A DNA stretch of 64,000 nucleotides from a virus: positions 32,001 to 96,000 of the IMG/VR virus record IMGVR_UViG_3300047325_000170, one strand, 5' to 3'. Positions 9,099 through 29,465 of this stretch are shown here, piece by piece; the first letter of the stretch is position 1, and every line of letters starts with the position of its first letter. The notes beneath the pieces were generated by a model. That model was given only the letters and a program-made list of their open reading frames with translations, made no database searches and was not told the DNA's origin. The position numbers and the translations under genes are program-made.

Positions 9099-12000
9099 CT
9101 AGGTGCGCGTTGCGATATGGATGTGGGCACCGGTTCCACGATCAATAAACATGATCGTGCCATCTCCAACATCGGTCCCTGCGGGGGTCGTCAGTTCAGC
9201 GAGCTGGCCCGCATCGTAGTAGCTGTTCACACCGATCTGGGCGACATTGTATCGTTCGGCGAGACGAATGAGTCGCAGTCCAGCCGGAGGGGTTGCGGCA
9301 ACATTAATCATCGGCCCACCGTTCTCGCTGACGAGACCGATATCGATGGCCTGTCCCTTGTAGTGATAGGACCCCGTCCCCGCCCCGAGATCTCCATGGG
9401 AACGTGCTGCTGCTGCAGTCATATAGACCGAGATGCCGTTCTGTGTGAGGAAGTTTAAGAAGGAGATGATGTCATTGCTGACACCTTGGCTTGGCGGGGC
9501 GGTCTGTTGTGTGAGGAGCTCGGTCATAATCAGTGAGCTTTCCCATTGGTGCTTACTGATAATGGCCATACGCGAGGACGTGCTGTAGCTGGTTCCACCG
9601 CTAAGAAAGGTGACGGGATTGGCAACTGACCCGCTCTCCGTTGGAACAGCGATGCCGGCAACCGGAGCAACAATGACCGATTGCGCGGGCGAGGCTGTCT
9701 CTAAGCCCTTTGCGAGGGTGGCATGAACCATGTCTCCCCGTGGCTGAATGGCCCCCAATTGACGGAGCTTCTCTTTGTCCGCGTCACTGATCGTGAGCGA
9801 CGTATCTCCGGGGAGGGCAGCCTGTAGGACAACGGACTCCGAGTGTCCGTTCAGGCCTGCTTGAAGTTCCGCCCCGCGATACTTGAGAAAGACCATGACA
9901 AGGGAGGTCTGGTCGTCCCAGTACCGTGAGATCGCAGTCCATGCGTACCCAAAGATAATCTGGAAGATGACGTTCGCCGCAAGGCCAATGGGATTGAAGC
10001 ATGAGATGATGCGGGCTTCCATGAGGATCGGGAAGAGCTCTGCAGCGAGTCCTGCAAGGCGCCCACCGGCGACGGCGAGATCTTCGGTGACTACAGCTTG
10101 GATGCTCTTCTCACCGACTTGCCCAAAGGCATCAGCAAGGATCTCGGTGAGATCAGCTCCCGCGCCAGCAAGGGTCTTCGAGGTGAGGGTCGTTGACTCG
10201 CGGGTGAGGAAGTTCAGGACGCCGCGCTTGGCAATGACTTCCGCCGCGGTCCGGTTGACTGCTTGATCGAATGTCCCGTTCGTGAAGTTCAGGAAGTTCT
10301 TGGCAATGGCGTCCTTGATAGCCGCATCGAGGATCTCTTCGCCATTCTCGTCGATAGCTTCGGCAAGAACTTCGTTGATGATCTGGGCGGCTGTCTCACC
10401 GGAGACTTTCTCGACGCCAGTCTTCCCAAAGATTGACCGTGTCTTACTGACGGCATTGCTGATGTTCTGGGCGAGTTGCTGGTACTCGCTTGCAGTGGTT
10501 CCAAAAGATGATTGCACGGAGGTCGAGACACTTGTGCTTCCGGAGAGAACACGATTGAGCCCATCGAGGATGAGGTTGCGGATCTGATAGGTGAGGAAGC
10601 GGGGTTTGAACGTCGAGACCGCTTTGCCTCCGATCTTTAGTTCGTAGCCAGTCGGGGGCGGTTTGCTGCCGCCCTTCAGAAACGAGAAGATCCGCTGGGT
10701 GATGTTCTGCTTGGTGACCTTTACGCCAAAGTTGAAGAGTGACTGAGAGAATTGCTTGGTCCCTTGACACAGGGCCCACTTTGCTCCCAAGAGACTGACC
10801 ACGTCCGCCGCAAGGTAGCCGCCAAACCAGGCCCACATCGAGCTCCAGTAGTTCTCACCCTTTACTTCGCAGAGCATGTCCGGCTCAATCGAAGTCACAT
10901 ACCCGACATCGAAACCGAAGTGATGAGTGACCTTGCGCACTCCGCACAGTCCTCGCACGTCCGTGTAGGTGTCGTTGAGGTACATGATGTCGTAGGGCTT
11001 GACTGTCGGATCTCCAAGGACAAGCACCTGCCCTTGGTACATGAGCTTTTGGTAGTCACGCAAGATCGCGCGCGCCATCTGGCGCATGTTCTCCTCGGTG
11101 ATCCAATGCCCCATGCCGCCGGCAATCGAGAAGTCGGTGCCGGGGATCCCGATATTCTCTGCCCAGTAGCCGACAAGGTCGAGCCCCAAGCTCCCGATAA
11201 TGGCCGCCTTGGTTGGCGCAACGTCGAGACCAAGGACGTCGGTGTTTACAATCGCTGTCTTGCGGAAGGCCGAGGAGATCTGCCGGTCAACGGTCTGATG
11301 AACAGGCTTGGGCGTCGGGCGTGAGGACTGATAGCCCTGGCCGTTGTACCACATGGCAATGACGTCCGTGTAGGTCTCTTCGTCTGAGGCACGGATCGTG
11401 TTCGTTAAGAGGTTAGACGTTGAGCCATAGTAGTGGAACTGGCAGAAGGTCTTGGTCTTGTAGCCGACCGGGTAGCCGTAGAAGCGATCAAGCCCCGGGT
11501 CCGCTTGCCCGAGATCGTAGGCGGAGACGCGCTGGTAATCATAGCGGAACTGATAGTAGGGCGCTCCAAAGAAGAGGGTCGAGCGGTACTCGAAGGGCAC
11601 GACGGCCGCGACGTAGGGCGGGAAGTATTGTGCCATCGTGGAGATGACATCCCAGCAGGTCTTGTTCTTCGTGTACATGTTGAAGGTAATGCCCGGCGGG
11701 TGTGGGCCCATGAGTTGCGTCTGTCCCACGTCAGGGAGAGGCGGCGCGTCAAACTGTCCCGAGCTGGGATTGAACCCACCCTGGGCTGCCTTCGCTTGAA
11801 CGTTATCGATAGCCGTCTTTACACTGTAGGGATTGGCAATGACACCAGCGGCTTGCTGCGCAAAGTAGTTGACGCCAACTGCTGATGAGAAGCTGCCAAC
11901 TTCTCGGAAGAACTTCGAGAAGGGGGTGTAGATCGAGTAGACGTTCTCGCAGGTCTCACCGTATCCCGATGGGATTCCTTGGTTGAGCATGTTCGCGGTA

Positions 12001-15000
12001 TTGCCGACCAGAGCAGCCGCGATGCCCGCAACCTTGTACGTTTCCGCAAGCTTCGGTTGCCCTGCCGCTCCCGCAACCCCCGCCGCCGTTGTAAGACCAG
12101 CCTCGAGTAAGCCACCCGTAAGAAAGTTGATACCGGCGAGGGAGGCTTGGTACACATAGTCGGTCAGGGTCTTCGAGGGATTGGTGAACGGCGCCACCTT
12201 CCGGTAGGCGCTGATCTGCTGGGGCTGATTGATCACGTGCGTGTCAGGGTCGAGAACGTCGATGCCCTCAGGTCCATTGTCACCAATTGCGTCCCAGAAC
12301 TGGAAGAGGTAGGGGTTGCCGAAGTGGCTGATACCAATGGGGTTCTCGGCCCATGCGCCGCCTTGGCTTGCACTATAGATGTCGTGCTTGATGAGGTTCC
12401 AGAACTTCGTCCCAAGACTGTAGTCGTAGAGCTCTTCGCCGTGGGAGTTGAGCATCTGCCCAATGATTTCACGTGGCTCGTAGGTGAGATCCATCATCTC
12501 ACCGGTCGGCGCCTGACCGTGCACGAGACGGTTCCCATCAGCAAGGAGTCCCGGAAGGAAGCCGCGGTCGGGTCGGTTGATGGAGTTTGTCTCGGATTCG
12601 GCAGAGGGGATCAGCTTCGTGAGCTCGATTCCATCACCAACTGCGATGATCTGCACCCGCTCGCCGAGACCGACCTCCGCAATACGTCCATTGAAGAGGA
12701 CCGGGAATTTGGCGCCGTTTGAACCGTAACCCATGCGGATGTGGACGCGCACGCCTGGCGCAAGCATGACCTGACCTTGCTGCTTCTTGCGCTGTTCAAT
12801 TTGCTGCTGAACGACACTGTCCGTCCCGAGCAGCAGGCGGATCGGGTTGACGAATCCCTCGACCCAGCGATTGATGTTGTTGCGGATGTCGTCGGTGGCC
12901 GCAAAGACCTCGCCCATGTTGAAGCTTACTGCGCCCTTCGCCACGCTGAGTGCGGCAGTCCCGAGATTGCTGAGAACCGGGATCGTATCTCCGTTGTAGT
13001 TGTAGAGCGCTGAGAGCATATTTGCGCTCAGCTGGAACTGCGTGTAAGACGAGAGATTGCCGTAGGTGTTCATGATCTCAATGATGGCGGTATGCATCGG
13101 ATCCCGGCGATCATTGATGATGTCTATGGATTGGATAGCCTGGAGGGCATAGAGATTCGGCATGAGGTTTTGCCAGCCGATCTTCGGGCCTTCGTCCATG
13201 AGCTGAAAGACGTAGGTGGGGTAGGCTTGAACGAGCCGCCCCGTCATGTCGTGTTCCATAAGATCCCGAAGCATGGCGATCATACGCCCATGTTCGTCGA
13301 TCTGCTGTGAACCAACATCGACGGGATGGTGACTCTGAAGCGCCTGATTCAGGTAGGCTCGCGGGTCCTTCCCATCTTTTTTCTGTCCTAGGATCTCTTG
13401 TGCGGAGTCCTGGACCGCCGCCGGAAGTCCGGGGATTTTCAGCCAGGATGCCGTCCCGTAGTTCCCGGCATTGACACCATAGCTATTTTCTCCCGGGTGG
13501 GTAATCTGGACCGACTGCCCGTCGACCTGAAGCGTCGCTTGGTAGTTGCTTTGCTGCGTGACCGTGGGGGTAAACTGATTCGTAGCCGTTTGGGTGCCGT
13601 TGTTAATGGTCGGCATCGTTAGTGAGCCAACGAGATTGGTGTGGCCGCGCTGCGGACCTGATTCCCAGGCAGTCGACGGCCGCCCTTGATTCGTATTGTC
13701 GCTACCGGGTGCTGCCTCGGGAGCCGTTGCGCCCATCGCCTGAGGATCAACCCCGTAGAGACCGCCCGCCGGATGCTCATCAAAGAGAGACTGCCGAACC
13801 GCTTCGCTAACGGAGCCAGTGATGTTGAGAGCGATAGTTCCGTTCTGGTTGAGGGTGGAGATTTGGCTCGCGACCTGAGCAAGGTACGATGAGGTAGCCG
13901 CTCCGAGGGGGTTGATCGGAATGTTCAGCTTTTCGGCGAGGAGCTCGTTTGGGTAATCGATGTAGAAGTCAGGATCGACGAAGCGACCCTGGTCAGTCCA
14001 ATACTCCCAGCGCAGTTGCTGCATGGCGAGCTGCGCCTGTGCCTCACCGAGCTGCGATGGGTCGAAGATCTCTCCGTTCTGAAGAGCTGCCTGGATACGC
14101 TCGAAGGTCGGAAGCTCGAGGTCAGGATAGAGCTCGAGGTAGGCCATCTGTTCTTTTGCTTCCTGAATAGGCGCAGCCGCAAACCACGCATTGACCGGCC
14201 GACCGGTTGTATCGAAGCCATTGTTGCCCTTGTCACCGGTTGGTTGACGGGGGTCCTTGGCAGGGTTGTAGTCGTTGATATAGCGCTGCCAGAAGACATA
14301 GCGCGGATCGGTCCCGGCGCTGATGGGTCCAACTTCGCCCGAGACCCCTGAAGGCAACTGCTCGTTGATGAGCTGGGGCAGGAGCGCTGCGCCCTTCACG
14401 GCTTCAATACGGCGTTGATGACGCTCGAAAGAGATCATCTCAATCGCGACGGTAAAGATGTTGGGATAGCCCTCGACGGGTTCCGACACAATGTTCGTGA
14501 AAACGACATTATGCACGCCCATAAGGGAAGCGATCTCATTCTCAAAGCCAACAAAGCCGGCAACGAGTTCATAGCGTGCCTCGCGGGCATTGGTACGAGC
14601 GTATTCAACCATTGCCCGCACGGAGTCGAGTGCCGCGAGGGTCAGTGCGGTGAAGGTAACGGTGAAGCGAACTTCGCCCCCTCCCATGTGTTGGTAGCCC
14701 GGCGTCTCATTCGCTGGAGAGCGCACCATCACAAATGAGTTGTTGATCTCGGCCGAGATGCCGGTCATGATCAGGTCGGGTGTATCCCATGGACGCATCC
14801 GTGCCTTGGCGTCATCGGTGAAATTGGTGATTTCAGCGAGAAGGTTCTCGAGCGCTTCGTAGATCGAAAGCTTCTCACTCTGTGGCAAGATCTTCACCGC
14901 ATCGCTGAGGGCATAGGTCTGCCAGCGGTTGTACTGATCGTGAAGATCAGAGAGCCCCTTCAGCCATGCGCTGTCGACAACCGTGAATTGAAACTGGGCT

Positions 15001-15794
15001 GACATGGCGTCGAATGGTTCGCGAGTACTGATGAGGTAGGGCTGCGAAGCAGTCAGTCCATTAAAGGTCTGTTGTTCCGAGGTGGTAAGGGGGGCCGAGC
15101 TTGGAAGATCGGGCCATTTCGCACATACGCGCCACTGCCCCGGCAGCCATTCCGCATAGGCTTGCTGCCAGTACCAGCGTTGTAAGGGGTAGATGAAAGC
15201 GGAGTCAAACTGATAGGGCGGGATCGATGAACAGAAGGTGCCGATTTCGAGAGCCTTACACCACAAGACAACAGCAAGCGCGTTCGGGATCTGTTGTCCA
15301 TCCTTGGTACCGGCCCGGAGGAAGAGCCGCTCGAGCGCGAGGACATGAACCCCATTCGAATTGAGGTACGTGTTCGTGACGGGCAAGATGGGCGTGCGCT
15401 TGAATTGAGCAATCAGACTCGCGATACTGCGATTGTCGATAGGTGGCGAGCTTAAGTAGCCCCCGCTGACGCGACGATTATCGGGATTAGGATCAACTTC
15501 TCCGGTCGAGAGTCCGAAGACATCATAGGCACTCGTGACTTCAAACTCGATCTGGACGATCTTCTCCACAAAGCCGGTGGACATGACAATACCGCCCGTT
15601 GTCCGAGGGACCGGTTCGACGTGGTTGTTGGAGACATCCGTGAGAGAGATACGGTACGGCGGGACCGTCGCGGCAAAGTCTCCGATACGAAGGTAGTCTT
15701 CGTTACCGATGAGCTCCCCGTCCAAACTGCGGTCAAAGTTGATCGCGAGGAGCTGGGGGAAGTTCTCATCAGAAGGATAGCGGAGGAGAGGCAA
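9099..15794 (-). CDS. Giant baseplate hub protein with C-terminal M15-like peptidase
   Basis: Hub-like motifs RVHIRMGYG..LFNGRIAEV and GDPTVKPYD..VRKVTHHF. C-terminal YHYKGQAID...HIHI. TTG start. Confidence 0.7.
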   Translation of the reverse strand: MPLLRYPSDENFPQLLAINFDRSLDGELIGNEDYLRIGDFAATVPPYRISLTDVSNNHVEPVPRTTGGIVMSTGFVEKIVQIEFEVTSAYDVFGLSTGEVDPNPDNRRVSGGYLSSPPIDNRSIASLIAQFKRTPILPVTNTYLNSNGVHVLALERLFLRAGTKDGQQIPNALAVVLWCKALEIGTFCSSIPPYQFDSAFIYPLQRWYWQQAYAEWLPGQWRVCAKWPDLPSSAPLTTSEQQTFNGLTASQPYLISTREPFDAMSAQFQFTVVDSAWLKGLSDLHDQYNRWQTYALSDAVKILPQSEKLSIYEALENLLAEITNFTDDAKARMRPWDTPDLIMTGISAEINNSFVMVRSPANETPGYQHMGGGEVRFTVTFTALTLAALDSVRAMVEYARTNAREARYELVAGFVGFENEIASLMGVHNVVFTNIVSEPVEGYPNIFTVAIEMISFERHQRRIEAVKGAALLPQLINEQLPSGVSGEVGPISAGTDPRYVFWQRYINDYNPAKDPRQPTGDKGNNGFDTTGRPVNAWFAAAPIQEAKEQMAYLELYPDLELPTFERIQAALQNGEIFDPSQLGEAQAQLAMQQLRWEYWTDQGRFVDPDFYIDYPNELLAEKLNIPINPLGAATSSYLAQVASQISTLNQNGTIALNITGSVSEAVRQSLFDEHPAGGLYGVDPQAMGATAPEAAPGSDNTNQGRPSTAWESGPQRGHTNLVGSLTMPTINNGTQTATNQFTPTVTQQSNYQATLQVDGQSVQITHPGENSYGVNAGNYGTASWLKIPGLPAAVQDSAQEILGQKKDGKDPRAYLNQALQSHHPVDVGSQQIDEHGRMIAMLRDLMEHDMTGRLVQAYPTYVFQLMDEGPKIGWQNLMPNLYALQAIQSIDIINDRRDPMHTAIIEIMNTYGNLSSYTQFQLSANMLSALYNYNGDTIPVLSNLGTAALSVAKGAVSFNMGEVFAATDDIRNNINRWVEGFVNPIRLLLGTDSVVQQQIEQRKKQQGQVMLAPGVRVHIRMGYGSNGAKFPVLFNGRIAEVGLGERVQIIAVGDGIELTKLIPSAESETNSINRPDRGFLPGLLADGNRLVHGQAPTGEMMDLTYEPREIIGQMLNSHGEELYDYSLGTKFWNLIKHDIYSASQGGAWAENPIGISHFGNPYLFQFWDAIGDNGPEGIDVLDPDTHVINQPQQISAYRKVAPFTNPSKTLTDYVYQASLAGINFLTGGLLEAGLTTAAGVAGAAGQPKLAETYKVAGIAAALVGNTANMLNQGIPSGYGETCENVYSIYTPFSKFFREVGSFSSAVGVNYFAQQAAGVIANPYSVKTAIDNVQAKAAQGGFNPSSGQFDAPPLPDVGQTQLMGPHPPGITFNMYTKNKTCWDVISTMAQYFPPYVAAVVPFEYRSTLFFGAPYYQFRYDYQRVSAYDLGQADPGLDRFYGYPVGYKTKTFCQFHYYGSTSNLLTNTIRASDEETYTDVIAMWYNGQGYQSSRPTPKPVHQTVDRQISSAFRKTAIVNTDVLGLDVAPTKAAIIGSLGLDLVGYWAENIGIPGTDFSIAGGMGHWITEENMRQMARAILRDYQKLMYQGQVLVLGDPTVKPYDIMYLNDTYTDVRGLCGVRKVTHHFGFDVGYVTSIEPDMLCEVKGENYWSSMWAWFGGYLAADVVSLLGAKWALCQGTKQFSQSLFNFGVKVTKQNITQRIFSFLKGGSKPPPTGYELKIGGKAVSTFKPRFLTYQIRNLILDGLNRVLSGSTSVSTSVQSSFGTTASEYQQLAQNISNAVSKTRSIFGKTGVEKVSGETAAQIINEVLAEAIDENGEEILDAAIKDAIAKNFLNFTNGTFDQAVNRTAAEVIAKRGVLNFLTRESTTLTSKTLAGAGADLTEILADAFGQVGEKSIQAVVTEDLAVAGGRLAGLAAELFPILMEARIISCFNPIGLAANVIFQIIFGYAWTAISRYWDDQTSLVMVFLKYRGAELQAGLNGHSESVVLQAALPGDTSLTISDADKEKLRQLGAIQPRGDMVHATLAKGLETASPAQSVIVAPVAGIAVPTESGSVANPVTFLSGGTSYSTSSRMAIISKHQWESSLIMTELLTQQTAPPSQGVSNDIISFLNFLTQNGISVYMTAAAARSHGDLGAGTGSYHYKGQAIDIGLVSENGGPMINVAATPPAGLRLIRLAERYNVAQIGVNSYYDAGQLAELTTPAGTDVGDGTIMFIDRGTGAHIHIATRT

Positions 15795-18800: not shown

Positions 18801-21557
18801 TTCGTAGGCCCCCATCACCTGCATCATCTCGTCGGTCCCAAGAGTACGGACAACATTCCCCGCCTCGTCGAGCTCCTCGCCGCCAACGATGAAACCCATG
18901 CCGACATTGCGCTGGTAGGTGGGGTCTGCGAACTCCTTCCCGAGGCGGGACTCTACGCGTTGGAACTGCGTCATCGCAATCTCGTCCTCTGAATTGCGCA
19001 GGGGCACGGCATTGAACTCTTGTTGTGGTCGCGCCCAGGGATTACCACCGGGGACCACGTCTTGATAGATCGCCGCTGCGACGGGAGATCCCTGACGGCC
19101 CGCCTTATTACCAATGATCGCGAGACCCTCGACCCCCTGTCCGGGAGCGGAGCCTTGAATCAGCCGCGTGCGAATCCGCTGCAGTTGCCGGTTCTTGACG
19201 GACGTATTTGAGCCGATGGTATTGAAGATGCGATTTGCAAAGCTTCCCTCGAAGCCGCCTCTTTCATCCTCTTTGTTTAAGAACTTCTCTTGAACTGTGT
19301 CTCCGCCGGCGCTTTCATAGAGGGCTTTTGCAACGGCATTACCTTCCTTGGGTTCGATACGTCCGTCCTCTGCATTTTGAAAGAACTGCCTGAAGAACTT
19401 GTCGCGGTTGATGCGACTCTTATCGGTTGTGGCAAAAGCATAGATTGGATTGATTGTCGACTCTGGCAAGAGCAAAGCATTATGAACGAGGAGTTGTTCT
19501 TGTGTCTGAACGGCCGACGCGGAGATAGCAATCCCGGGATCCTCGGCCGTGGCATCAAGGACGCCCTTCCCGAGCTCAGACGTTGCTTGGTCAAAGAGTC
19601 CCATGTCGAGTTTGCGGACTGCGCGCTGCATGCGGCGGCCGACCGATGCGAACATGACTTCGGTGGCTGAGAAAACATGGAGTCCGCCTTGGATGCGGTT
19701 CTGCGCCGCAATCTTTCGTGCCTCGGAGTAGTTATTAAATGTCTCCGGTCTGACATGAACTGTCTGATATTTCAGTCCTTGGTTGATGAGCTCGTTATCG
19801 TCGAGGAACTCGCTTCCCCGGCCCGATTGCCGTAGGACGAGGTCACTGACGCCAAGGTACTGGCCGATATATTTGCTCCCGCCGGCCGTTTGGAAGACAC
19901 CGTTGACGTCTTCAACGGGAAGGAAGAACTGAGCGGCCCCGCCGGTTCCTTTTGAGATGGCAGCGTTCTCGTGGGGAGCAATGTGAACCCAGACACCGAA
20001 TCCTTGGCCACCGCCCTTGAGAGGGTTCGACTCTTGGAAGGAATAGGAGACCTTCCACTTCGCTGCACGCGGGACCGATTTTCCGTCCTTCTGCTCAAAG
20101 CTTTGAAAGAACTTGATACGTTCCTGAAGATAGTCGAAGGCGGCTTCACGGTTTCCGCCGATGTTGCCGTTCCCGAAGGCGACGATGCCTGTTTTCTTCT
20201 CAAAGGTATCAAGGGCCCGAAGCCGCGCGCGTACATGGGCGGCTTCATCGAACTCATTGACCTTGCCGGTCCACACTTTCTTGCTACCTTCTTGCTTCAT
20301 CTCGAAGACTTCGCGTGAGGTAAGCTGCGCGATGTGGGACTCAAGACCACCGGGGATCTCTTCCGTACCCATCTTGAGGCCCATATGCTGGCCTTGTTGT
20401 TCAAGGTTTTCAAAGTGCCGGCGGAAGAAGCCAAAGGCTCCCTCTCCGGTGAAGGCTTCGCGCCGTAAGACATCCGCCCCGTGGGGCATGCCAAGGCCAT
20501 TCACTGAGGTTTGCATCGCCTCGAGAACAGGGTTCATAAAGCGCTGCCACATCTTCTTGCGCAGAGCAGCGCGCATCGCTGGATGCTGGGCCGGATCTCC
20601 CTTGATCCGGCCATTCTTTACCAGTCGTTGCCATTGGTTCTCAAAGGCGGTCTCGAAGGTGTTGTAGATTGCCCGGCTCATCGCTACATTCTGGGGAGCG
20701 ACGAAGCCCTGCATCACCCGGTTATAGAGGCCCTGTGCATCCTTCGTGTAGACGCCGCCGATCCCGCGACTGCGGATCTTCGGGACGATCCCGCCATCGT
20801 CGGTTGTGACCGATCCGCGCTCGAGCAGTGCCTTGAAGCCGTCGGGATTGAGGAATTCGTGGGGCGACTTCTCATCATTCGTCACGCCACTGAGGGCCAT
20901 CATCGTGCGCTGATGAGTCATGATGAGATCCTGGAAGCGGATCTGGCGCGCGGTCGCCTTGGTCTGTGCCATGTTAAACATGAGCTGACCGACATCTTCG
21001 GGGTTCATGGTTGCAGAGAAGCTCTTGCCAAGCTTTCCTATGGCGCCCTGGGGGACGATGTTCATCGCCACCTGTCCGCTCTCGGTGAGCGAGGAGCTAA
21101 CCTTATAGACTCCAAACTGCTTGGTCAACTCGGGGTCCATGAAGCCAGCAGCACGTAGAGAATCCGTCATGACGTAATAGCCAGAAGGAAGCTCACCTTG
21201 CGCGATCTTGGCAGCGGTCTGAGCGCCGGCTGTTTTCATCTCCTCAAGGCGTCCCGCAGCATTGGCGGCCCTCTCCGCCTTCGTCTCGGGAGTGAAACGG
21301 AAGTCACGTAAGGCAACTCCCATGTCCATGTCGCGGATCTTCCGCCGCGCCGAGGTGAACTCAGGGAGATCCTTGGTGGAGGGAACCTTTGTGATCATGG
21401 CTTGCCAGACATTTGTGCCGCCCTCTTTAACAAACTTCCAGAGGTTTGCCGTCGCCAGATAGCCGCTGCCCCGCATCTTCATATAGACCCCACTCTTGGT
21501 GGTGTCTGCGCCTTGGGCTGGAGCGTAATTCTTAACTACCTTGTCGTAGAGAGACAT
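15819..21557 (-). CDS. Single-chain two-barrel (beta/beta'-like) RNA polymerase, probably virion-packaged
   Basis: beta'-like SLATQIKGKKG...K.LDFSG, VHRDP and LYGDSDGDKV (DxDGD at 17316-17330). Weaker beta-like QQEFNAVPL, YEQQAI and MKIMADMSKNTV upstream. No cysteine found in 1912 aa. Confidence 0.82.
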   Translation of the reverse strand: MSLYDKVVKNYAPAQGADTTKSGVYMKMRGSGYLATANLWKFVKEGGTNVWQAMITKVPSTKDLPEFTSARRKIRDMDMGVALRDFRFTPETKAERAANAAGRLEEMKTAGAQTAAKIAQGELPSGYYVMTDSLRAAGFMDPELTKQFGVYKVSSSLTESGQVAMNIVPQGAIGKLGKSFSATMNPEDVGQLMFNMAQTKATARQIRFQDLIMTHQRTMMALSGVTNDEKSPHEFLNPDGFKALLERGSVTTDDGGIVPKIRSRGIGGVYTKDAQGLYNRVMQGFVAPQNVAMSRAIYNTFETAFENQWQRLVKNGRIKGDPAQHPAMRAALRKKMWQRFMNPVLEAMQTSVNGLGMPHGADVLRREAFTGEGAFGFFRRHFENLEQQGQHMGLKMGTEEIPGGLESHIAQLTSREVFEMKQEGSKKVWTGKVNEFDEAAHVRARLRALDTFEKKTGIVAFGNGNIGGNREAAFDYLQERIKFFQSFEQKDGKSVPRAAKWKVSYSFQESNPLKGGGQGFGVWVHIAPHENAAISKGTGGAAQFFLPVEDVNGVFQTAGGSKYIGQYLGVSDLVLRQSGRGSEFLDDNELINQGLKYQTVHVRPETFNNYSEARKIAAQNRIQGGLHVFSATEVMFASVGRRMQRAVRKLDMGLFDQATSELGKGVLDATAEDPGIAISASAVQTQEQLLVHNALLLPESTINPIYAFATTDKSRINRDKFFRQFFQNAEDGRIEPKEGNAVAKALYESAGGDTVQEKFLNKEDERGGFEGSFANRIFNTIGSNTSVKNRQLQRIRTRLIQGSAPGQGVEGLAIIGNKAGRQGSPVAAAIYQDVVPGGNPWARPQQEFNAVPLRNSEDEIAMTQFQRVESRLGKEFADPTYQRNVGMGFIVGGEELDEAGNVVRTLGTDEMMQVMGAYEQQAIAKPEINEAFGAGANLHNMKIMADMSKNTVVINGGKTTWDDDFVKIFSGVPLVKTLQKHEGAGMLVRGQMNMMMARAGKDPQKALALQQGLQEIFDQLGLGMKFSIENGYVVNRAISGKHRFDETNVAKALEAKRMMNELGQKIDPSGGMELLQTTNFTSRSGNRYRVQYEQSMLATRVINDPSPTTDMTAEEALYAKHKRLNPKRNEAGMQAFDIKAYEAEGLLLQAENLKTSYLANPTTQKRAYKLHQYLSAYEANQNPMKFGNATGATEMTAEQIALREQAPKNVLSKDEYLARYGRGAQYIDIGNGRRLYAPDEIPDLTDVKGGGYRPSESQRALDRVIALSARIDPENLAHLDDLNKSIESYQQSLATQIKGKKGLLNNLYKSLDFSGKGFLKAPLQQSLWADDASFQPFSAKVSREFAKQIGAVPGQSLLKDERGQEFFWATVHRDPNAIYGRMGAKVYVDDTIKGFGLYVHDSLRKALYGDSDGDKVRVVLAGMLEGTKINRAIMQKLHGQFESAWTAKVAAWEGHEAALKEIKANLPKTAELFANFENYYHTNLPILKMSTMERILEQHEVDSAQGLIGAVTTPIQDRLMNTIKNTAASPEERELAALQYTGAGIIREEFLKVKGGNQFDPYAFTTLLQQQSVGKPVSVPGVAGASVIDKTQDLYDKKSGLLQTSAGSMNVDSYMDKYFLAGAKEDMEAGKDIWKYQALKAFTDMVKTGQAAEPKFDKWGKEISWFESFTEPVNWKSQAAMKNGAGPLDLANAGDWVRTITNPGKKVGRSAVDIFSRIFGRGAIDAAGTTEERMQEAQAASQALTEPKIGASIPESVLPETKDLTENMISAPVTQNASSMVEDGAKIAKKLSMSGVMEKLRNPWVMAGLGAGALATAAVTFGQSGEIRDAPEMPKPPTGGRTRVMSNDTGGSAQSYNIQVRASRNGDMSSPEALRAGISNAIGAQVNVDMQDARRTTRDRDKDASDQLKGRS

Positions 21558-24500
21558 TAGGCCGCCTGCTGAATCTGCATGTTCACTTGATGTTGCTGAG
21601 CATTATTGGGATAGAGCTGGATATCGATATCGCGAAGCCCCATACCATCGAGGACGCGATGGAGGTTCGCTTTGATGTTGCCGGGGGTCTCGCGGAAGGG
21701 ACGGATGTCTTTGATCCCAAGCTCACTGACTCGCTCTTCATCCTGCGGCCAGAAGCCTTGGGAGGTCATATCGAGACCCTCTTGCTTCGTGACAACCAGA
21801 CGGTAGTCGTCAAGTGAGTTCTCAGCCTGCCAACCATTCCAGTCCGCGGGCGGCAGGTAATGGTGCTTGAAGTACTCGATGAGTTCTGGCTTCTCATCGA
21901 CCTTTAGGCCATAGGCGGCTTGCAAGAAACGGCGCTCGTTCTTGGGCACCATCTTGAGGATCTCTTTCCGCTCAGGCCCCGGGGCCTTGAGGAACGCCTG
22001 GAAGAACTCACGCTCCTTGGGGTCAAGTGAGAGCAAGACCTTTTGGAGATCGCTACCTGGCTTCGCACCATAGAGTGTCGTCTGCGCGACCTGACGATAC
22101 TGGATCGCAAGGATATCATCACGGGTGAGCTTCAGCTCCTTGCGATAGGACTGCAGCTCGGAGATCTCTTGGTTGATCTCGTGCAAGCGCTTCGCTTGCT
22201 TCTTCTTGTCGCCCTTAATGATGATGCGCCGCTTCTCTTGCCGTAGTTGGGAGATGCGGTGCTTGCGATCATCGCCTTCGCGTTCGTAGCGGTCGATGAT
22301 CGCGCCGATGTCTTTGTGCTCATGTTTGAGAACGTAGGCGCGCGTCTTCTCGTAGAGCCCCTCGTACTTCATGTACTTAAGAATGTCGAAGTACTCTTTG
22401 GTCTCGCGCTCTTTCTTACGATACTCCGGTATGGGATCTTGTGACACCTTATGGCTGAAGGCAAGCGCGCCGGCAATCGCCATCGAAGCACCCATCAAGA
22501 TGGCGCGCGACTTCAACTGGATCTTCCCAAGCTTGAAGCCAAATTTGGTGTTGGGGAGACGCTCAATGAGCTTCCCGCCGTAGAGGGGGCCAACCCCGAG
22601 GAAGTACCCGATAGCACCGGCAACCGCCATACCGGCGATGCCTTGTGCGGCAGCTGATTCAAACGAGGGGAAGATGTAATCCCGGAAAGGGTGCTTCCAG
22701 TCTTGCCAATCCTTACCGTAGACTTGCGTACGCTTATAGAGTTCGATAGGTGAGTCAAGGGCCATGTACTTATTGTGAAGCAGGGTGATCGGCAGGTGCC
22801 CAATGCGCTCAAGGGCTCCGGCCCAGGCGATCTCGTTGCTCGTGTACTGTGCATGCATACCAGCGGGCGAACTATCTTGGGTCTCTGAGCCGTAGTCCTG
22901 ATCGATAGCTTCGCGGTTGAGCATCCGCCCATGGCTAAAGACGACAGCGTGGATGGTGTTGAGGGTATCCTTCGAGACACGCTGCGCTTGATCGTGAGCA
23001 TAGCCGATCTTCACCGTACGCCCCGGCCCGAGATTCTGGCTGAGCCAGGTGGTCGCATCGGCATCGCTGCGGACGTGAACACCCGCAAGGCGGATCGGAT
23101 TGTCGGGGTGCTCGAGCGTCGTGAAGGTATTATTGTCGATCATCTTATCGATATGGACGGTCTCATAGTCGAGCTGTGCATACCGGAGATGATAGGGTGC
23201 CATCGTTACGCGGTGCTTGCGCTGCGTAACCTGTTCCTTGACGGTCTTGATGCGTGCTCGATCTTCGTCGGAGAGGACGCCTTCGGGGAGATGCACGAGA
23301 TAGTCGCGGTAGCGCCGGTACTGTGAGGACCAGGGCGCCACATCACCGAGGATCTCGAGCTTCGTGACATCATCGTAGAACTGGCCTTGGCTCCAAAGGC
23401 CTTCTTTCGTCTCCTTGGCGATCTGCTTGCGGACATCGTCGACCTTTGCAATCGTCTTATCGTAGAGATCCTGATCGAAGGTCAGCTGCGCGGAACGCTG
23501 CTCATTTGGATTGTCGCGGTTGACGTAGACGATGCCGCCCTGCTTTGCGCCAAGCTCGGCCATGTCCAGGTTGAGTTGTTCGCGATGGCGTGCATCAATC
23601 GTGTCATGCAGTTCGCGATAACGCTTCTGCGAGAGGGTGTGGATCTCAATTGGGTTGCCGTCCTTGGTGACAAAGTCGACGGTTCCGGAGATCCCAAGCT
23701 TCTTGTCATCGTAACTGACGTCACGCTTGCCACCCGGCGACTCGCCGAGAAGCTCATGCTTGATCTTCTCATGCAGCTCTCCACCGCGTTCAGCGATTTC
23801 CTGTGAGTAGGCATAGAAGGGCTCGTGGTCTCCCGTTAAGAGTCCATAGAGTCCGTCGCGAGAGTAGCCGATCTGCGTGCTGCGTAGCTTGAGGTCCATG
23901 GCTGGTATTCCATGGAGTTTCTCGTAGGCCGCACCTGGCAGGCGCGCTTCACCGTTCGGGATCGTGACATAGGGGTCGCCGTGGAGGAAGTCGAGGAAGT
24001 AGGCGGGGTCTTCACCGCCCTGCCCCGGCAACCAGGTGGGCATTGTATTCCGGATCGGATTGTATTCGGTGTTGGAGTGATAGCGGTGGGGCAGGAAACG
24101 ACGGAAGGCTTCTGAGAGCCCCGGTGTCGGCAGCATGCCGCCGGTGTTCCAGTTATCCCAGTACTGCCGCTCGAACGAGGTCATCCGTCCTGCTGATTGC
24201 AGGGTCGGCAAGTTGGAGTAGGGATAGTCCACGGTGCTCGCCGCGGCGAAGCCGTAGATACCGCCGATTTCCGTTAAGGAGTAGTAGCCAAGACCGGCCT
24301 GATAGCGTGGATCGTTGGGATTGATGAGTCGCTTGAGGGAGCGGGGATCATTCGGATCCTGCGACTTGAAGAGCCCCGGCGCTTGCGTGCCTTCGAGCAT
24401 ACGCCCCGGCGTGAAGCGCTGCGCTGCCTTGAGCTTCTCGTTGGACTCACGGATCTTTTGGCGTGTCTTCGCCTTGGCCGAACCGTAGGGCGCAATCGCC

Positions 24501-26743
24501 CGCGCACCCTTCCCGTAGCTGCCGCGCTGGACGCCTTCGTCATAGCCCGCATCGCTGTCGTCAGCGTCGTCTTGGGTATCGTCATTGATCGCAGCAATCG
24601 CCCGATCAGAACCGGGCAGGCCCACCGCGCCCATCGGCAGGATCTGGCCCGAGGCGGTGACAAAGCCGGTGAGTTCTTGGTTAGCAGCCTTTTCTTTGAT
24701 TTGCTCGTTGAGGGTGCGAAGATCTCCGCGGTACTTGGGATTGCGTTCGCCCTGGTGGGGGCCAGAGATCAAATACGGAAGATCCTCCGCATGCATGTAT
24801 TTCGTCGGCTTGAGGATCGGGCCGAGAATTGGGTTGAGGAGGGCGCCCCAGGGTGAAGTGGGCTCAAAGAGCGGGGCGGAGATCGGATAGGGGCGGTCCT
24901 TGTAGTGCTTCTTCTCGTAGTGATAGCGATCAAAGAGGAAGTGCTGCGCCCAACTGAAGGGATGCGTCGGTGTGGGGAGGGCGGCATTAGCGTAGTATTC
25001 ATCAACTGAACCGAAAAGGGTGTCGGTCTTGGTGATGTCGCCAGCTAAGGCTTGACGATGAGCATTGGGAGCAAAGTACTGGATGCGCTCGCCGCGGAAC
25101 GGCGTGCTCGATCCGAAGCTCCACCAGCGGCCCTTGCGGACCGGGACATAGCCACTGTCCTGTTGCTCCTTGAGTTCCTCTTGGCTGAGGCCAACCTTCG
25201 CATCGACGAAGGGGTGGGCGATGTGAGAGAGGACACCGCCGGAGAGCTCATCGACATGCTTGAGCCACGGACTGATCCCAAGCTTGTCCTTAAGTCCCGC
25301 CCACCAGAGCTCACCCTTATCCTTGGCGAGCTGTGCTTGATCGGTCGGGCGGCGCCCCATGAGCTTGCCGAGTTCATCGTTGAGATAGCCTGCGTAGAAG
25401 ATCCCCGCCGCGATAGGCAAGGCCCGCTTGAGCATGACATTCGCAAAGTAGGCGGTCGGACCCTTAAAGGCTAGCTTCCCGAGCTTGAACTCGGTGGATG
25501 ATCCCGACATCGCAAGCCATGGGAAGAGGCCATTGTAGGCCATGCCCGTGTTGATACGCTCGAGGAGATGATAGGCGGCAAAGGTGCCGGTGTTGATCTC
25601 GGTTCCGCGGGTTGCCCCGAAGAACATGTTCTTGAGACCAGTGGGCGTGAACTCCATGGCCCGTGCCACCCCGAAGGGCAGCTGATCAGCAAGGCGTCGT
25701 GCCTCGGGAAGATCCTCGACTGCAATGTTTCCGAAGCGGGACTGCCAGAACTTCTCGCGGCCCTCTTTGCTCCAGATTGCCGCGCCGCGCTCATTGAGGC
25801 CAACGTCGAAGAAGCGTTGCGCACGAGCTCGTAAGCTGGTGTTTCCGGGATCGCGAATCGCAGCGATCTTCTCGAGCTTCTCATTGAGCGTCTCAAGGTT
25901 GAAAAGCCGCACCCCTTCTTCCTGAGAGATTCCCCGCTCTTCGCGGATAACATCTCCCCGGATCCTTGAGATGAGTTTTTGATTGCGACTAATGCGAGCA
26001 TGGATATTGCCGACATCATAGCTCTCGCCGAGGAGATCGCCACGCATGCGCTCGATGGCGTTCTTCTTCTCGCCAATCCCCGCCTTACCATAGAGCCAGT
26101 ACTTGCCTTCAATGGTATGGATCTTGCTCCACAGTAGCTGTGGAGGCGCCCCTTCGCCCGGGCTATCAAGAAGGGCTTGAACGACGTGAACCTTACCACC
26201 GACGAAGTAGGCACGGGCGTGCTCTGAGATCCCGCGCTTCTGGAGTTCTTCAGGGGTGAGGAGGCCGAGCTTGCCGATTCTCCCGAGGGCTTGGAACTGA
26301 GAGGTCGACTTGCCGGCCGTCCCATACATCTCACGGAGTTCAGGACCGAAGGCGAGCTTATCGGCGATCTGGAGCGGCAGGAAGGTCTGAGACGCTTTCT
26401 GCCACGCGGTCATCAGCGGCGAGCGGCTAATGAACATCCCCAGGGCATGGATGCTATTGGCTTCAGGGGCCTTGCCCTGCAGGTGGTTGTAAAGGAGATT
26501 GGTTTCGATGGTCCGCCGCTGCATGGCACGCAGGGCAGTCGTTTGCTTCATCCAGCCAGGTGGCGTGAAGGCGAGGCCGCCCTGTTGGAAGGCGACCTGC
26601 ATCTCCGCAGCAAGGGTCTTATCAGCCCACGGCTTGAGGCCCTTGCCCAACGCAAAAAGACCGCCGACAGTAGCTGCTCCGGTGAGGAGCGAACGGCGGC
26701 GGTCGTCTTCGCTGTTGGGGGGGTTGTAGCCGTACTCAGCCAC
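21557..26743 (-). CDS. Large Cys-free virion protein in the tape-measure position with PD-(D/E)XK-like and SNase-like domains
   Basis: G.ELHE...ISGTVD...IEIHT...QLNLDM...GGIVYVNRD, and IDNNT...IRLAGV...LNREAI. Several Gly/Ala hydrophobic segments. Follows the tail chaperones. Confidence 0.65.
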   Translation of the reverse strand: MAEYGYNPPNSEDDRRRSLLTGAATVGGLFALGKGLKPWADKTLAAEMQVAFQQGGLAFTPPGWMKQTTALRAMQRRTIETNLLYNHLQGKAPEANSIHALGMFISRSPLMTAWQKASQTFLPLQIADKLAFGPELREMYGTAGKSTSQFQALGRIGKLGLLTPEELQKRGISEHARAYFVGGKVHVVQALLDSPGEGAPPQLLWSKIHTIEGKYWLYGKAGIGEKKNAIERMRGDLLGESYDVGNIHARISRNQKLISRIRGDVIREERGISQEEGVRLFNLETLNEKLEKIAAIRDPGNTSLRARAQRFFDVGLNERGAAIWSKEGREKFWQSRFGNIAVEDLPEARRLADQLPFGVARAMEFTPTGLKNMFFGATRGTEINTGTFAAYHLLERINTGMAYNGLFPWLAMSGSSTEFKLGKLAFKGPTAYFANVMLKRALPIAAGIFYAGYLNDELGKLMGRRPTDQAQLAKDKGELWWAGLKDKLGISPWLKHVDELSGGVLSHIAHPFVDAKVGLSQEELKEQQDSGYVPVRKGRWWSFGSSTPFRGERIQYFAPNAHRQALAGDITKTDTLFGSVDEYYANAALPTPTHPFSWAQHFLFDRYHYEKKHYKDRPYPISAPLFEPTSPWGALLNPILGPILKPTKYMHAEDLPYLISGPHQGERNPKYRGDLRTLNEQIKEKAANQELTGFVTASGQILPMGAVGLPGSDRAIAAINDDTQDDADDSDAGYDEGVQRGSYGKGARAIAPYGSAKAKTRQKIRESNEKLKAAQRFTPGRMLEGTQAPGLFKSQDPNDPRSLKRLINPNDPRYQAGLGYYSLTEIGGIYGFAAASTVDYPYSNLPTLQSAGRMTSFERQYWDNWNTGGMLPTPGLSEAFRRFLPHRYHSNTEYNPIRNTMPTWLPGQGGEDPAYFLDFLHGDPYVTIPNGEARLPGAAYEKLHGIPAMDLKLRSTQIGYSRDGLYGLLTGDHEPFYAYSQEIAERGGELHEKIKHELLGESPGGKRDVSYDDKKLGISGTVDFVTKDGNPIEIHTLSQKRYRELHDTIDARHREQLNLDMAELGAKQGGIVYVNRDNPNEQRSAQLTFDQDLYDKTIAKVDDVRKQIAKETKEGLWSQGQFYDDVTKLEILGDVAPWSSQYRRYRDYLVHLPEGVLSDEDRARIKTVKEQVTQRKHRVTMAPYHLRYAQLDYETVHIDKMIDNNTFTTLEHPDNPIRLAGVHVRSDADATTWLSQNLGPGRTVKIGYAHDQAQRVSKDTLNTIHAVVFSHGRMLNREAIDQDYGSETQDSSPAGMHAQYTSNEIAWAGALERIGHLPITLLHNKYMALDSPIELYKRTQVYGKDWQDWKHPFRDYIFPSFESAAAQGIAGMAVAGAIGYFLGVGPLYGGKLIERLPNTKFGFKLGKIQLKSRAILMGASMAIAGALAFSHKVSQDPIPEYRKKERETKEYFDILKYMKYEGLYEKTRAYVLKHEHKDIGAIIDRYEREGDDRKHRISQLRQEKRRIIIKGDKKKQAKRLHEINQEISELQSYRKELKLTRDDILAIQYRQVAQTTLYGAKPGSDLQKVLLSLDPKEREFFQAFLKAPGPERKEILKMVPKNERRFLQAAYGLKVDEKPELIEYFKHHYLPPADWNGWQAENSLDDYRLVVTKQEGLDMTSQGFWPQDEERVSELGIKDIRPFRETPGNIKANLHRVLDGMGLRDIDIQLYPNNAQQHQVNMQIQQAA

Positions 26744-26755
26744 GTAGGAAGTCCT

Positions 26756-27502
26756 TTACGATCTGTTCTGTTTGAGACTTGCCATCAGTTGCTGACGACG
26801 TTGTGCTTTCTCGAACTTTGGTAGGACTTCACTGAGCGGCTTGAGGGCTGCTCGATCTGCGCCGTCGATGACCCCGAGGGTTGATCCACTCTCGTCGGCG
26901 ACCTGTTGATTCTTGTTGAGGCGCTCTTGAAGTTCGGCCATGCGTTCTTTGTTATTGAGGCCACGCGGTGGCTTGATTGGTTTCTCTTCTTCTTTCTTAC
27001 TCTGCTGGATCTTCAGCCCCGGCGTCGTCGCTTCAAGGATCCAACAAGCCCGTGCATAGGCATCGAAGAGTTGATCGTGACTCCAATCACTGTAGCGGGC
27101 GAAAAGCCCCCCGCCATCAAAGGCATAGTCGATCATCGTCTCCATCTGAGCTTCAAAGTCTTCAACGATACGCCCCTGGTAGAAGCCGAGGCGTCCTTCC
27201 ATATCGATGATGCCGGAAGAATTGAGGACCTGAGCGCAGATAGCATCCGGTACACCGGCCGGTCCATCTTGGACTGCGGGGGCATCTGCCTTCCATCCCT
27301 CGGGCCAGAGGAGCGTTGTCTCGCAGACTTCTTCGGCGCGTTCGAGCTCGTCTTCGATATGAATAATAGCTCGGTACTCACGCCGCGAGAGTCGCCGGTA
27401 GATGTAGATCTGCTCGACGTGCTGGAATAAGAAAATAGCCCCGTAGTCAGCAATCCAACTACGGAAGCGTTCCTCCGGCGGCGCTTGCGGCGCTGCCTCC
27501 AC
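26756..27502 (-). CDS. Tail assembly chaperone-like protein 2
   Basis: YIYRRLSRREY...LLWP...PAGVP..I...SG, paralogous to the upstream gene. Confidence 0.6.
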   Translation of the reverse strand: MEAAPQAPPEERFRSWIADYGAIFLFQHVEQIYIYRRLSRREYRAIIHIEDELERAEEVCETTLLWPEGWKADAPAVQDGPAGVPDAICAQVLNSSGIIDMEGRLGFYQGRIVEDFEAQMETMIDYAFDGGGLFARYSDWSHDQLFDAYARACWILEATTPGLKIQQSKKEEEKPIKPPRGLNNKERMAELQERLNKNQQVADESGSTLGVIDGADRAALKPLSEVLPKFEKAQRRQQLMASLKQNRS

Positions 27503-27505
27503 TCC

Positions 27506-27982
27506 TTAGAGCTGAATGCTCTCCGCGACGGGTTGGAAAGCGGAGTAGGCATAGAACTCTTGCATCACGACTTGGACAGCACCGGCCGGCATGTTCTGCA
27601 ACACGGTGCGGTCCGAGCAATCCGGGAAGAGACAGATCTTCGTGAAGAGGGTATCTTCGCGTTGATCGGGATCTTCGATAGCGGAAATAAGCTTCTGAAC
27701 GGCCTTCCACTCAAGGCGCGTCATCGTGCGATAGACACATCCACTGCCATCGGCGAAGAGCACGCAGAGCACCTTGCTGTGAGGATACTTAAGCTTGATT
27801 TCCTCGACCTGAGAGCGCGTGGGGCCGCCTTCATAGAGAGGCTCATCCTGACCGAGCGTCTCAAGGACGCTGGCGGTCTTCGGTGGCTCTTCGGCAACGA
27901 CGGGGGCAACGACGGGGAATTCTTCAGCGAAGGGAATTGCATCGAGGGCAGCTTGCTGTTCGGCGGTTAACTCTTCAGACAA
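27506..27982 (-). CDS. Tail assembly chaperone-like protein 1
   Basis: Acidic 158 aa right after the tube genes. CVYRTMTRLEW...CLFP...PAGAV. Confidence 0.65.
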   Translation of the reverse strand: MSEELTAEQQAALDAIPFAEEFPVVAPVVAEEPPKTASVLETLGQDEPLYEGGPTRSQVEEIKLKYPHSKVLCVLFADGSGCVYRTMTRLEWKAVQKLISAIEDPDQREDTLFTKICLFPDCSDRTVLQNMPAGAVQVVMQEFYAYSAFQPVAESIQL

Positions 27983-28012: not shown

Positions 28013-28714
28013 TTACAAGCTTACGATAGAGCGATTGGGCGCATTGATATCAGTAGCGATGAACTGGAACATCTCTTGGATGTTTTCACCAGAGAGGTCG
28101 ATGCGTTGGCCGACCGACATCAGGCTGACTCCCTCAATCGTACGGACGCGTCCGCTATTACGAGCAGTGATGTCAATACTGTCGATATCTCCGTAGACGA
28201 GCAAGATCTGAAAGTTCGTATTAGTGAAGTAAGGAACACGCGAGAGATCGGTTTGCCCTTGGTTGATGATCGTCTCGAGATTGCCCCAGTTGATGTTCTT
28301 TTGATTCTGGATCCACTGTTGATAGCCGGTCGGGTCCGTCTGGGGGTCCGGCATCGCCGTTGGGGCATAGGGATTCGGTTGAAGGGTCTGCGAGGCGAGC
28401 GGCGCCGCTTCTTGGTCATTGATGCTATTGACCAACTCATGGAGGTAATCGCCCGGCCGCAGGTTGATACAGAAAGACCCCTGGACGATACGCGTCCCTG
28501 GGATAATCCTATTAGCAGTATAGGATGCGTAGGAATAGATTGGGTATTGGTTTTCGGTCAACGCGCATTGAAACTCACAGATTTCGTCGATGTAATTGCC
28601 AGCCAAGAAGAGCGAGACGTCAACCCCGGAGAAGTATTCAACAGGATAGACTTCGTTGTAGGCCGGTGTGTAGGGGTTGACCTGCGCCCCGCGGTAGGGA
28701 GTGATGAAGGACAT
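28013..28714 (-). CDS. Tail tube paralogue 3 (tube initiator-like)
   Basis: YFSGVDV...PIYSY...GTRIVQGSF, homologous to the 29466 ORF. Confidence 0.7.
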   Translation of the reverse strand: MSFITPYRGAQVNPYTPAYNEVYPVEYFSGVDVSLFLAGNYIDEICEFQCALTENQYPIYSYASYTANRIIPGTRIVQGSFCINLRPGDYLHELVNSINDQEAAPLASQTLQPNPYAPTAMPDPQTDPTGYQQWIQNQKNINWGNLETIINQGQTDLSRVPYFTNTNFQILLVYGDIDSIDITARNSGRVRTIEGVSLMSVGQRIDLSGENIQEMFQFIATDINAPNRSIVSL

Positions 28715-29364
28715 TAGGCGATGACGGCCCCGGAACTAACCACCGTCGGATAGGCTGGTTGGAGGGGAACGTAGTCGAGAGCGATGTAGGACATCTGCTC
28801 CTCAAGGATCAGGTCATCGATACCGGCAGTTATGCCATTCGTGACAATCTCAACGCCGATGATCTTCGCGAGCGATGACTGCCCATACTCATTGACCATG
28901 GTGATTGTGATATCGAAAGGGGGAACTTCGTCCGCCTGCATGCGGGCAATGACTGCGGGAAGGTTTCCCGTTGCCGTCGAGTAGTTCGTATTGACCTGTT
29001 GGTAGTAGCTCGAAACCGCGTTCTCGACGGCGTAGAGGCTCTCTCGGTCAAACATCGTAAAGATCAGAGATCCCGCAATGGTCCGGCAGCCACGGGTGAA
29101 GCCTCGGGGGTTGATGGACTTTAAGGCGCGGACCGGCACCTTGTCACGGTGGGTCGAAATCGAGACCGTCTGGAGGGTCGCAATCGTGATCGGAGCGGTG
29201 ATCAGGGGCGAGGGGTTAAAACCCACCCCCGGCTGATACTGGTCATTGGTCAGCATCGGGACCGTAATCGAACAGACGATGTCGCAGCCGGCGTAGCTCG
29301 AGAAGAGCGACGTCATGTAGGCGTTGGGGCCAGTCGGGAGCATGGCGGGCAGGTAGCTAGACAA
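28714..29364 (-). CDS. Tail tube paralogue 2
   Basis: SYAGCDI...RGFTRGCRTIAGSLIFTMFDR...DEVPPFDITIT..NEYG. Confidence 0.75.
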   Translation of the reverse strand: MSSYLPAMLPTGPNAYMTSLFSSYAGCDIVCSITVPMLTNDQYQPGVGFNPSPLITAPITIATLQTVSISTHRDKVPVRALKSINPRGFTRGCRTIAGSLIFTMFDRESLYAVENAVSSYYQQVNTNYSTATGNLPAVIARMQADEVPPFDITITMVNEYGQSSLAKIIGVEIVTNGITAGIDDLILEEQMSYIALDYVPLQPAYPTVVSSGAVIA

Positions 29365-29400
29365 GGCTCATCCTAGAGGTGGAGCTAAACTACGCTAGCC

Positions 29401-29434: not shown

Positions 29435-29465
29435 CAGAGTATCACAAAAGCGGGGTCTTTGCCAG

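Follow-up and report, generated by a model that had tools for sequence, protein, structure and literature searches.

The locus considered here raises the question of what kind of protein a phage encodes directly after its tail chaperones when that protein carries two nuclease-like folds. The window, meaning the whole stretch of DNA that was analysed, comprises 64 kb (positions 32001-96000 of the 111,160-bp contig IMGVR_UViG_3300047325_000170, of 58 % G+C), and its genes, almost all located on the minus strand, together form a phage structural module. Within it, a gene at 21557..26743 (minus strand) encodes P0001, a cysteine-free giant protein of 1728 residues that is homologous to gp145 of the Bacillus jumbo phage 0305phi8-36. 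P0001 is probably an ejected protein of the tape-measure class, residing in the tail lumen of a jumbo myophage resembling 0305phi8-36 and bearing a structural pseudo-enzyme related to staphylococcal nuclease (SNase) together with a vestigial nuclease. An ejected, membrane-inserting tail protein had been proposed in an earlier note on this DNA, and it is the best reading on the grounds of the position of the gene after the chaperones, the presence of gp145 in the virion, the lack of Cys, the hydrophobic Gly-rich segments and the coupling to the neighbouring gene, that of P0002.

Gene position, family and cysteine content

The order of genes in the window is sheath, tube, tube paralogue, two chaperone-like genes, P0001, P0002 and baseplate hub, with the sheath and tube genes and their paralogues at 28714-34085. 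The two tail-chaperone-like genes (26756..27982, minus strand) encode proteins of 248 and 158 residues that both match phrog_29362, as expected of a split G/GT-type pair such as gp143/gp144 of 0305phi8-36. The P0001 gene follows directly; its GTG start codon lies 8 nt downstream of AGGA, and the alignment of the protein with its nearest relatives P0004 and P0005 begins at residue 1-3. Its stop codon overlaps the ATG start codon of P0002 in the sequence TAATG (21555..21559, minus strand), as had been reported in the earlier note. P0002 (15819..21557, minus strand; 1912 residues, 0 Cys) takes the slot of gp146 of 0305phi8-36, here called slot 2, and precedes a gp147-like baseplate hub with cell-wall-degrading domains (9099..15794, minus strand; 2231 residues, 10 Cys). 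The order of chaperones, gp145-like gene, second giant gene and hub is common to the window, 0305phi8-36, Moorella phage MTATph1 and Acinetobacter phage ME3.

Among phage records, tblastn identifies gp145 of 0305phi8-36 (ABS83703.1; 31.5 % identity over P0001 residues 382-1724), and Moorella phage MTATph1, Acinetobacter phage ME3 and several Bacillus jumbo phages encode homologues as well. In the GenBank record of 0305phi8-36, gp145 is flagged as a virion protein by mass spectrometry; two tail-chaperonin genes precede its gene, and those of gp146, a hypothetical tape measure, and gp147, a hub that carries wall-degrading domains, follow it. Among 5.8 billion proteins, 65 relatives of P0001 were identified, and a pattern scan of IMG/VR showed at least 218 loci to encode the gp145 family, of which 80 were kept, nearly all on contigs of 100-265 kb. 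This distribution on large contigs indicates that the family is a hallmark of this jumbo myophage group, and the family thereby marks a large and poorly known group of phages.

P0001 possesses no Cys among its 1728 residues, in agreement with the earlier note. The mean Cys content of 30 large open reading frames (ORFs) of the window is 0.49 % (96/19764), which leads to an expectation of ~8.4 in P0001 and a Poisson chance of zero of ~2e-4. Approximately fifty homologues of 1300-2300 residues have no Cys either, as is the case for 51 of the 64 distinct IMG/VR copies of the family. Nearly all homologues with more than two Cys bear inteins, which are spliced out. These inteins (Hint, Intein_splicing, LAGLIDADG_3) occur in many members of the family (P0012, P0014, P0024, P0025, P0027, P0029, P0030, P0037 and P0063) at sites that correspond to P0001 residues ~546, 870-907, ~927 and 1126-1156, within the most conserved motifs. 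Zero Cys is also found in the slot-2 proteins of 0305phi8-36 (2537 residues), the Moorella phage (1309 residues) and ME3 (1603 residues) as well as in P0002 and its relatives, while the hubs of those phages have 8-10. Three proven tape measures likewise have none (lambda H, 853 residues; T5 pb2, 1219 residues; P23-45 gp96, 5002 residues), and Cys is present in other tail proteins of the control phages, namely lambda J, T5 pb1 and T5 pb3. As a tape-measure trait, the absence of Cys is empirical, drawn from these three proteins, and is no part of a formal definition; no paper stating such a marker was found in the literature searched. Zero Cys may serve as an easy marker for proteins of the tail lumen, and the rule that holds across the gp145 family may help in recognising them.

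Two Gly/Ala-rich hydrophobic segments (residues 1364-1388 and 1412-1433; 22445..22654, minus strand), also named in the earlier note, were confirmed in P0001, and GxxxGxxxG (Gly-zipper) motifs occur in the same region of its relatives. The first residues of the protein (1-45; 26671-26743, minus strand; DDRRRSLLTGAATVGGLFALGKG) comprise a cluster of Arg and, behind it, a hydrophobic Gly/Ala stretch, and a hydrophobic segment occurs within the first 80 residues of about half of the homologues. This N-terminal stretch may act as a membrane segment or as a docking site for a chaperone.

The two nuclease-like domains

The earlier note had pointed to a Cas4/PD-(D/E)XK-like unit at 23430-23890 (residues 952-1104) and an SNase-like unit at 22890-23165 (residues 1194-1284). 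Both are borne out by profile comparisons and an AlphaFold model, and the motifs quoted for them (G.ELHE, SGTVD, EIH, QLNLD, IDNNT and IRLAGV) are all located there. The first is a PD-(D/E)XK domain of the Cas4/lambda-exonuclease type at residues 944-1116 (23396..23914, minus strand), forming an optional cassette with degenerate motifs. PHROG 1706 (Cas4-like) matches residues 976-1111 of P0001 (E 1.7e-10; 3.7e-12 with the isolated segment, which two more nuclease PHROGs also match), and a 38-sequence family profile matches Cas4 SSO0001 (4ic1; E 6.8e-7). Residues 935-1345 were modelled with AlphaFold (mean predicted local distance difference test score, pLDDT, of 88). VIA structural search of the full library gave, over model residues 10-182, LHK-Exo (3syy, Z 14.9), Cas4 (4ic1, Z 14.3) and lambda exonuclease (3slp, Z 13.5), and Foldseek with the 935-1345 model gave Cas4, lambda exonuclease, LHK-Exo, MGME1 and SNase, with E-values of ~1e-5 to 1e-6 for the PD-(D/E)XK domain (among them 3e-6). 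Residues 944-1116 have the restriction-endonuclease-like alpha/beta fold. Pfam showed no match for whole P0001 or its isolated nuclease-like segments, and comparison of the single sequence with PDB sequences resulted in chance matches only.

The motifs of the P0001 cassette are GELHE (H991), SGTVD (D1023), EIH (E1033, H1035) and QLNLD (Q1056, D1060). The D...(D/E)-x-K triad is incomplete, with D1023 and E1033 kept and Lys replaced by His1035, and the QxxxY motif retains Q1056 with Tyr replaced by D1060. The four-Cys Fe-S cluster of Cas4 is missing, there being no Cys in P0001 or in intein-free homologues. Among thirty cassette-bearing homologues, Lys is present in twenty-seven and Tyr in twenty-six, and H, D, D/E, K, Q and Y are all intact in twenty-six; the degenerate cassettes are those of P0001 (HDEHQD), P0003 (QDDHQE), P0022 and P0031. 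The motifs GExRLPGxxYE and ILADVAPYS on either side lie 26-36 or 199-214 residues apart, a bimodal spacing, so that the cassette is a discrete unit of ~175 residues, missing from about half of the family. On a tree of the C-terminal core, its presence and absence require at least 4-6 gains or losses. P0001 belongs to a well-supported clade of four in which the cassette is degenerate in P0001 and P0003 and cleanly missing in P0004 and P0005, where the absent region corresponds to P0001 residues 947-1122.

Among pairs of intact cassettes, the rate of divergence matches that of the core (slope 0.97, rho 0.63). The pair P0001-P0003 shares 35 % identity in the cassette versus 55 % in the core, 3.3 standard deviations below the intact-pair trend (z = -3.3). 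The earlier note had suggested that the folds were repurposed; as regards the PD-(D/E)XK domain, this divergence, faster than that of the core, and the deletion in sister proteins look like decay. Judged from these sequence comparisons, the cassette in the P0001 lineage looks like a decaying vestige under relaxed constraint, not one repurposed under selection.

The second domain is an SNase-like OB fold without catalytic residues (residues 1190-1301; 22841..23176, minus strand). The 38-sequence profile matches staphylococcal nuclease over ~100 residues (E 1.1e-5), as does a second profile built on a partly different set of homologues (E 1.2e-5), and Pfam SNase is reached by 3 of 22 homologues with E up to 0.002. 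The model resembles SNase and the SN-like domains of Tudor-SN (VIA; Z 10-11.5, root-mean-square deviation 2.2-2.8 A), with Z 10.0 to 1sta and Z 11.5 to an SN-like extended Tudor domain for residues 1190-1301, and Foldseek TM scores are ~0.63-0.70 on target. Among the structural matches are the SN-like halves, themselves inactive, of extended Tudor domains, and residues 1190-1301 have the SNase-type OB fold (PF00565). The IDNNT and IRLAGV motifs of P0001 align with IDGDT and FRLLLV of SNase.

In SNase, D21 and D40 are Ca ligands, and R35, E43 and R87 are catalytic. In P0001, D21 is replaced by N1205, D40 by H1223, E43 by S1226 and R87 by T1263, leaving R35 (R1218) as the only one kept. The same is seen across 56 homologues, in which D21 is retained in two, D40 in eight, E43 in six and R87 in none, and the R35 position is R or K in fifty-four. 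The SNase-like fold is present in every homologue of the gp145 family, and by these residue counts it is a family-wide pseudo-enzyme. The claim that both folds are degenerate holds for P0001, where neither is canonical, but not for the family, where the PD-(D/E)XK motifs of 26 of the 30 carriers are intact: catalytic residues of the SNase-like domain were lost family-wide, whereas those of the cassette are degenerate in only a few lineages, including that of P0001.

Proposed function, alternatives and neighbouring regions

From these features we infer a location of P0001 in the tail lumen, its ejection and its insertion into a membrane. P0001 would be co-produced with P0002 and loaded into the lumen of the tail tube, helped by the two chaperone-like proteins encoded upstream. 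During infection it would be expelled through the tube, and its Gly-rich hydrophobic segments would then enter the host membrane and form part of the path by which the DNA is taken in. Its architecture would be that of folded modules on a string, in which the SNase-like OB fold would serve throughout the family as a structural or binding module without catalytic activity. The PD-(D/E)XK module, with its motifs intact in most relatives, would probably be an exonuclease delivered with the DNA. In the P0001 lineage, with Lys and Tyr lost and fast drift, it would be a vestige nearing deletion.

Several points weigh against this interpretation. The hydrophobic segments of P0001 are only moderately hydrophobic, and few relatives exceed a simple two-segment hydropathy threshold. 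The mass-spectrometry note on gp145 shows presence in the virion only and does not place the protein in the tail lumen; for 0305phi8-36, it was gp146 that was designated the tape measure, mainly by its length (Hardies et al. 2007). P0001 has well-folded alpha/beta domains, unlike the classic all-helical tape measures. The earlier note had placed P0001 in the tape-measure slot; this holds with respect to the chaperone pair, directly downstream of which a tape-measure gene is found, but not with respect to the hub, directly upstream of which such a gene would lie, as P0002 comes in between. With regard to the vestigial state of the cassette, the nuclease domain is still well packed in the AlphaFold model (pLDDT above 90), and H1035 together with an acidic residue at 1060 is common to P0001 and P0003, for which a selected, altered metal site is conceivable.

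It is unlikely that P0001 is itself the length-determining tape measure and P0002 mainly cargo, an RNA polymerase (RNAP)-like protein with a short C-terminal anchor. A gene directly after the chaperones is in the normal place for a tape measure, zero Cys is shared with lambda H, T5 pb2 and P23-45 gp96, and P0001 is the conserved partner of the two (~30 % identity to gp145): tblastn with P0002 gives no match in the phage collection, and its BLASTP comparisons with the slot-2 proteins of 0305phi8-36, Moorella and ME3 phages are insignificant. However, the P0001 gene does not adjoin that of the hub and its product is rich in globular domains, while slot-2 proteins are longer and more variable in length (1245-2944 residues), a better fit to a ruler. 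The C-terminal 60 residues of gp146-type proteins are moreover conserved (Hardies et al. 2007), as for the hub-binding end of a tape measure, and the chaperones are described in the same paper as "one gene removed" from gp146.

The nature of P0002 bears on a second alternative. P0002 possesses the motif HRDP...YGDSDGDKV (residues 1372-1415), conserved in its few relatives, and one hydrophobic segment (residues 1804-1822). Among 36 complete slot-2 ORFs from related IMG/VR loci, 25 possess a beta'-like DxDGD motif, mostly ~400-500 residues before the C-terminus (NADFDGD in locus L009), and PF00623 (RNA_pol_Rpb1_2) is found below threshold at this site in three of four slot-2 proteins tested (E 7.6e-4 to 0.09). 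The P0002 family matches the DxDGD slot-2 family by hhalign (96.8 %, E 2.4e-10), with both alignments pre-cut around the motif. P0002 has no Pfam match, and no match to PDB sequences was obtained with the single sequence or with 2-sequence and 8-sequence profiles; ESM Atlas provided nothing usable for it. On the strength of the motif, the hhalign match and the sub-threshold PF00623 matches in slot-2 proteins of related contigs, the identity of P0002 as an RNAP is plausible, and the slot-2 family may represent a widespread tape-measure-fused RNAP like P23-45 gp96. DxDGD is absent from 0305phi8-36 gp146, Moorella MTATph1 CDS27 and ME3_36, and in related loci it occurs both with and without the nuclease cassette. 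The earlier note had also raised a role of P0001 as an RNAP partner or promoter-recognition factor; as the gp145 family is found beside slot-2 proteins that lack the motif, the conserved role of the family cannot depend on an RNAP neighbour. A C-terminal domain common to the gp145 and slot-2 families was considered and rejected (hhalign probability 0.2 %).

In this second alternative, the nuclease-like folds would be working DNA-binding modules that hold the leading end of the genome or recruit the RNAP-like neighbour to it. The conservation and translational coupling of the P0001/P0002-type gene pair, the frequency of DxDGD in slot 2, the R or K kept at the R35 position and the identical changes of Lys to His and Tyr to an acidic residue in P0001 and P0003 are in its favour. 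We nevertheless regard it as quite improbable, since the cassette is dispensable (absent in P0004, P0005 and about half of the family) and outpaces the core in divergence in the P0001 lineage, and motif-free slot-2 proteins also occur beside the family. Both domains of P0001 have a net charge of -6, which is weak evidence against a generic clamp, and the DNA-gripping role suggested in the earlier note is not supported. That the cassette is a selfish, homing-type nuclease insertion that spread like the inteins and is now decaying is very improbable: its patchy distribution and the inteins near it in the same proteins (P0001-equivalent ~907, ~927 and 1126-1156) are as this would predict, but it always occupies a single site with the same flanks, has no splicing motifs and is of an exonuclease-type fold and no known homing-endonuclease type, and the tracking of core identity by cassette identity argues for vertical descent with losses.

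Taking P0001 as an ejected tail-lumen protein, the intact cassette of the wider family could, more tentatively, be an active exonuclease that is carried in the tail lumen and injected with or just before the genome, beside a tape-measure-slot protein with an active site like that of a two-barrel RNAP; we consider this possible but doubtful. If true, it would represent a new class of tail-delivered nuclease, which might prepare DNA ends by resection for the polymerase injected with it, or be directed against the DNA of the host or of competitors, with P0001 as a naturally inactivated, built-in control. With this natural series of intact, degenerate and deleted cassettes, the role of the cassette can be tested directly. 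Cell-wall hydrolases and, in a single phage, an RNA polymerase are known on tape-measure-class proteins; for nuclease folds on such proteins, no report was found in the literature searched, which is not proof of absence.

The modelled parts of P0001 are mixed alpha/beta and helical, and three further regions were delimited (all minus strand). By alignment, a conserved N-core extends over residues 330-946 (23906..25756) and contains the invariant residues R536, W541, R617, P618, H651, E878, R881, R882, N899, D923 and E932. Its model (617 residues) matched no solved fold (Foldseek E above 5, VIA Z at most 4.2), a result that, at the low confidence of this model (pLDDT 68.6), is no proof of a new fold. 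Matches of the N-core in BFVD are relatives only, and the label of one names a large-polyvalent-protein-associated domain; nothing usable was obtained from ESM Atlas. A helical linker with a family-wide DRFxILADVAPYS-type motif (residues 1117-1189; 23177..23395) matches generic helical hairpins only (model residues 190-246). The conserved C-terminal region (residues 1434-1728; 21560..22444) is charged and probably helical, followed by a conserved W/P-rich part, and no known domain was found in it. Elsewhere in the window, a large terminase is encoded at 61499-63277, and an ORF of 3306 residues with 11 Cys and no Pfam match lies upstream of the tail genes (38251-48171, minus strand).

Comparison with known systems

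P0001 is a new domain variant among tape-measure-class tail proteins with embedded enzyme folds. Its cassette has the motif order of the Cas4/RecB/lambda-exonuclease clade (GxxH, GxxD, (D/E)xK, QxxxY), and by profile alignment D1023 and E1033 align with D99 and E113 of SSO0001. It differs from that clade in having His1035 and Asp1060, in the absence of an Fe-S cluster and in being embedded in a structural protein of 1728 residues. As in the SN-like domains of extended Tudor proteins, the catalytic residues of the second P0001 domain are lost and its fold is probably a scaffold; compared with SNase and Tudor-SN, P0001 has no Tudor insert, has D21, D40, E43 and R87 replaced and belongs to the context of a phage tail. 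T5 also encodes an annotated endonuclease, T5.141 (L087:15778-16530), between its tail chaperones and tape measure pb2; this is probably an unrelated homing-type gene.

The polyvalent proteins (Iyer et al. 2017, PMC5512222) are likewise giant multidomain proteins with optional enzymatic modules and are thought to be delivered with DNA, and the best structural match in BFVD carries a large-polyvalent-protein-associated domain, as a label only. In contrast to them, P0001 has no LPD or metallopeptidase domain detectable with Pfam, and its gene lies in a tail-assembly module by the chaperones; that paper makes no mention of tape measures or SNase.

The closest counterpart, gp145 of 0305phi8-36, is likewise free of Cys; its gene is preceded by a split chaperone pair and followed by a second giant gene and then by that of a lysin-bearing hub. 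It differs in its N-terminal third and in its neighbour gp146, which lacks DxDGD, and BLAST aligns 68 % of P0001 in two separate stretches, neither of which runs on across the PD-(D/E)XK region. No domain annotation of gp145 was found in the papers searched; the present analysis provides a first domain map of its family and adds context for the neighbouring RNAP-like protein.

The tape measure gp96 of Thermus phage P23-45 is fused to a two-barrel virion RNA polymerase, and its folded RNAP domains have been proposed to occupy the tail channel in the manner of a caterpillar (Chaban et al. 2024, PMC10770324), which shows that folded enzyme domains can ride on a tape measure. Like gp96, P0001 is a giant Cys-free protein with folded enzyme domains and hydrophobic membrane segments, proposed to occupy the tail lumen and to be delivered by way of the tail. 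The two share no sequence similarity, and the folds of P0001 are those of nucleases and not of a polymerase. In the contractile-tailed jumbo phage of the window, the function appears to be split over two adjacent genes, with the DxDGD-type motif on P0002.

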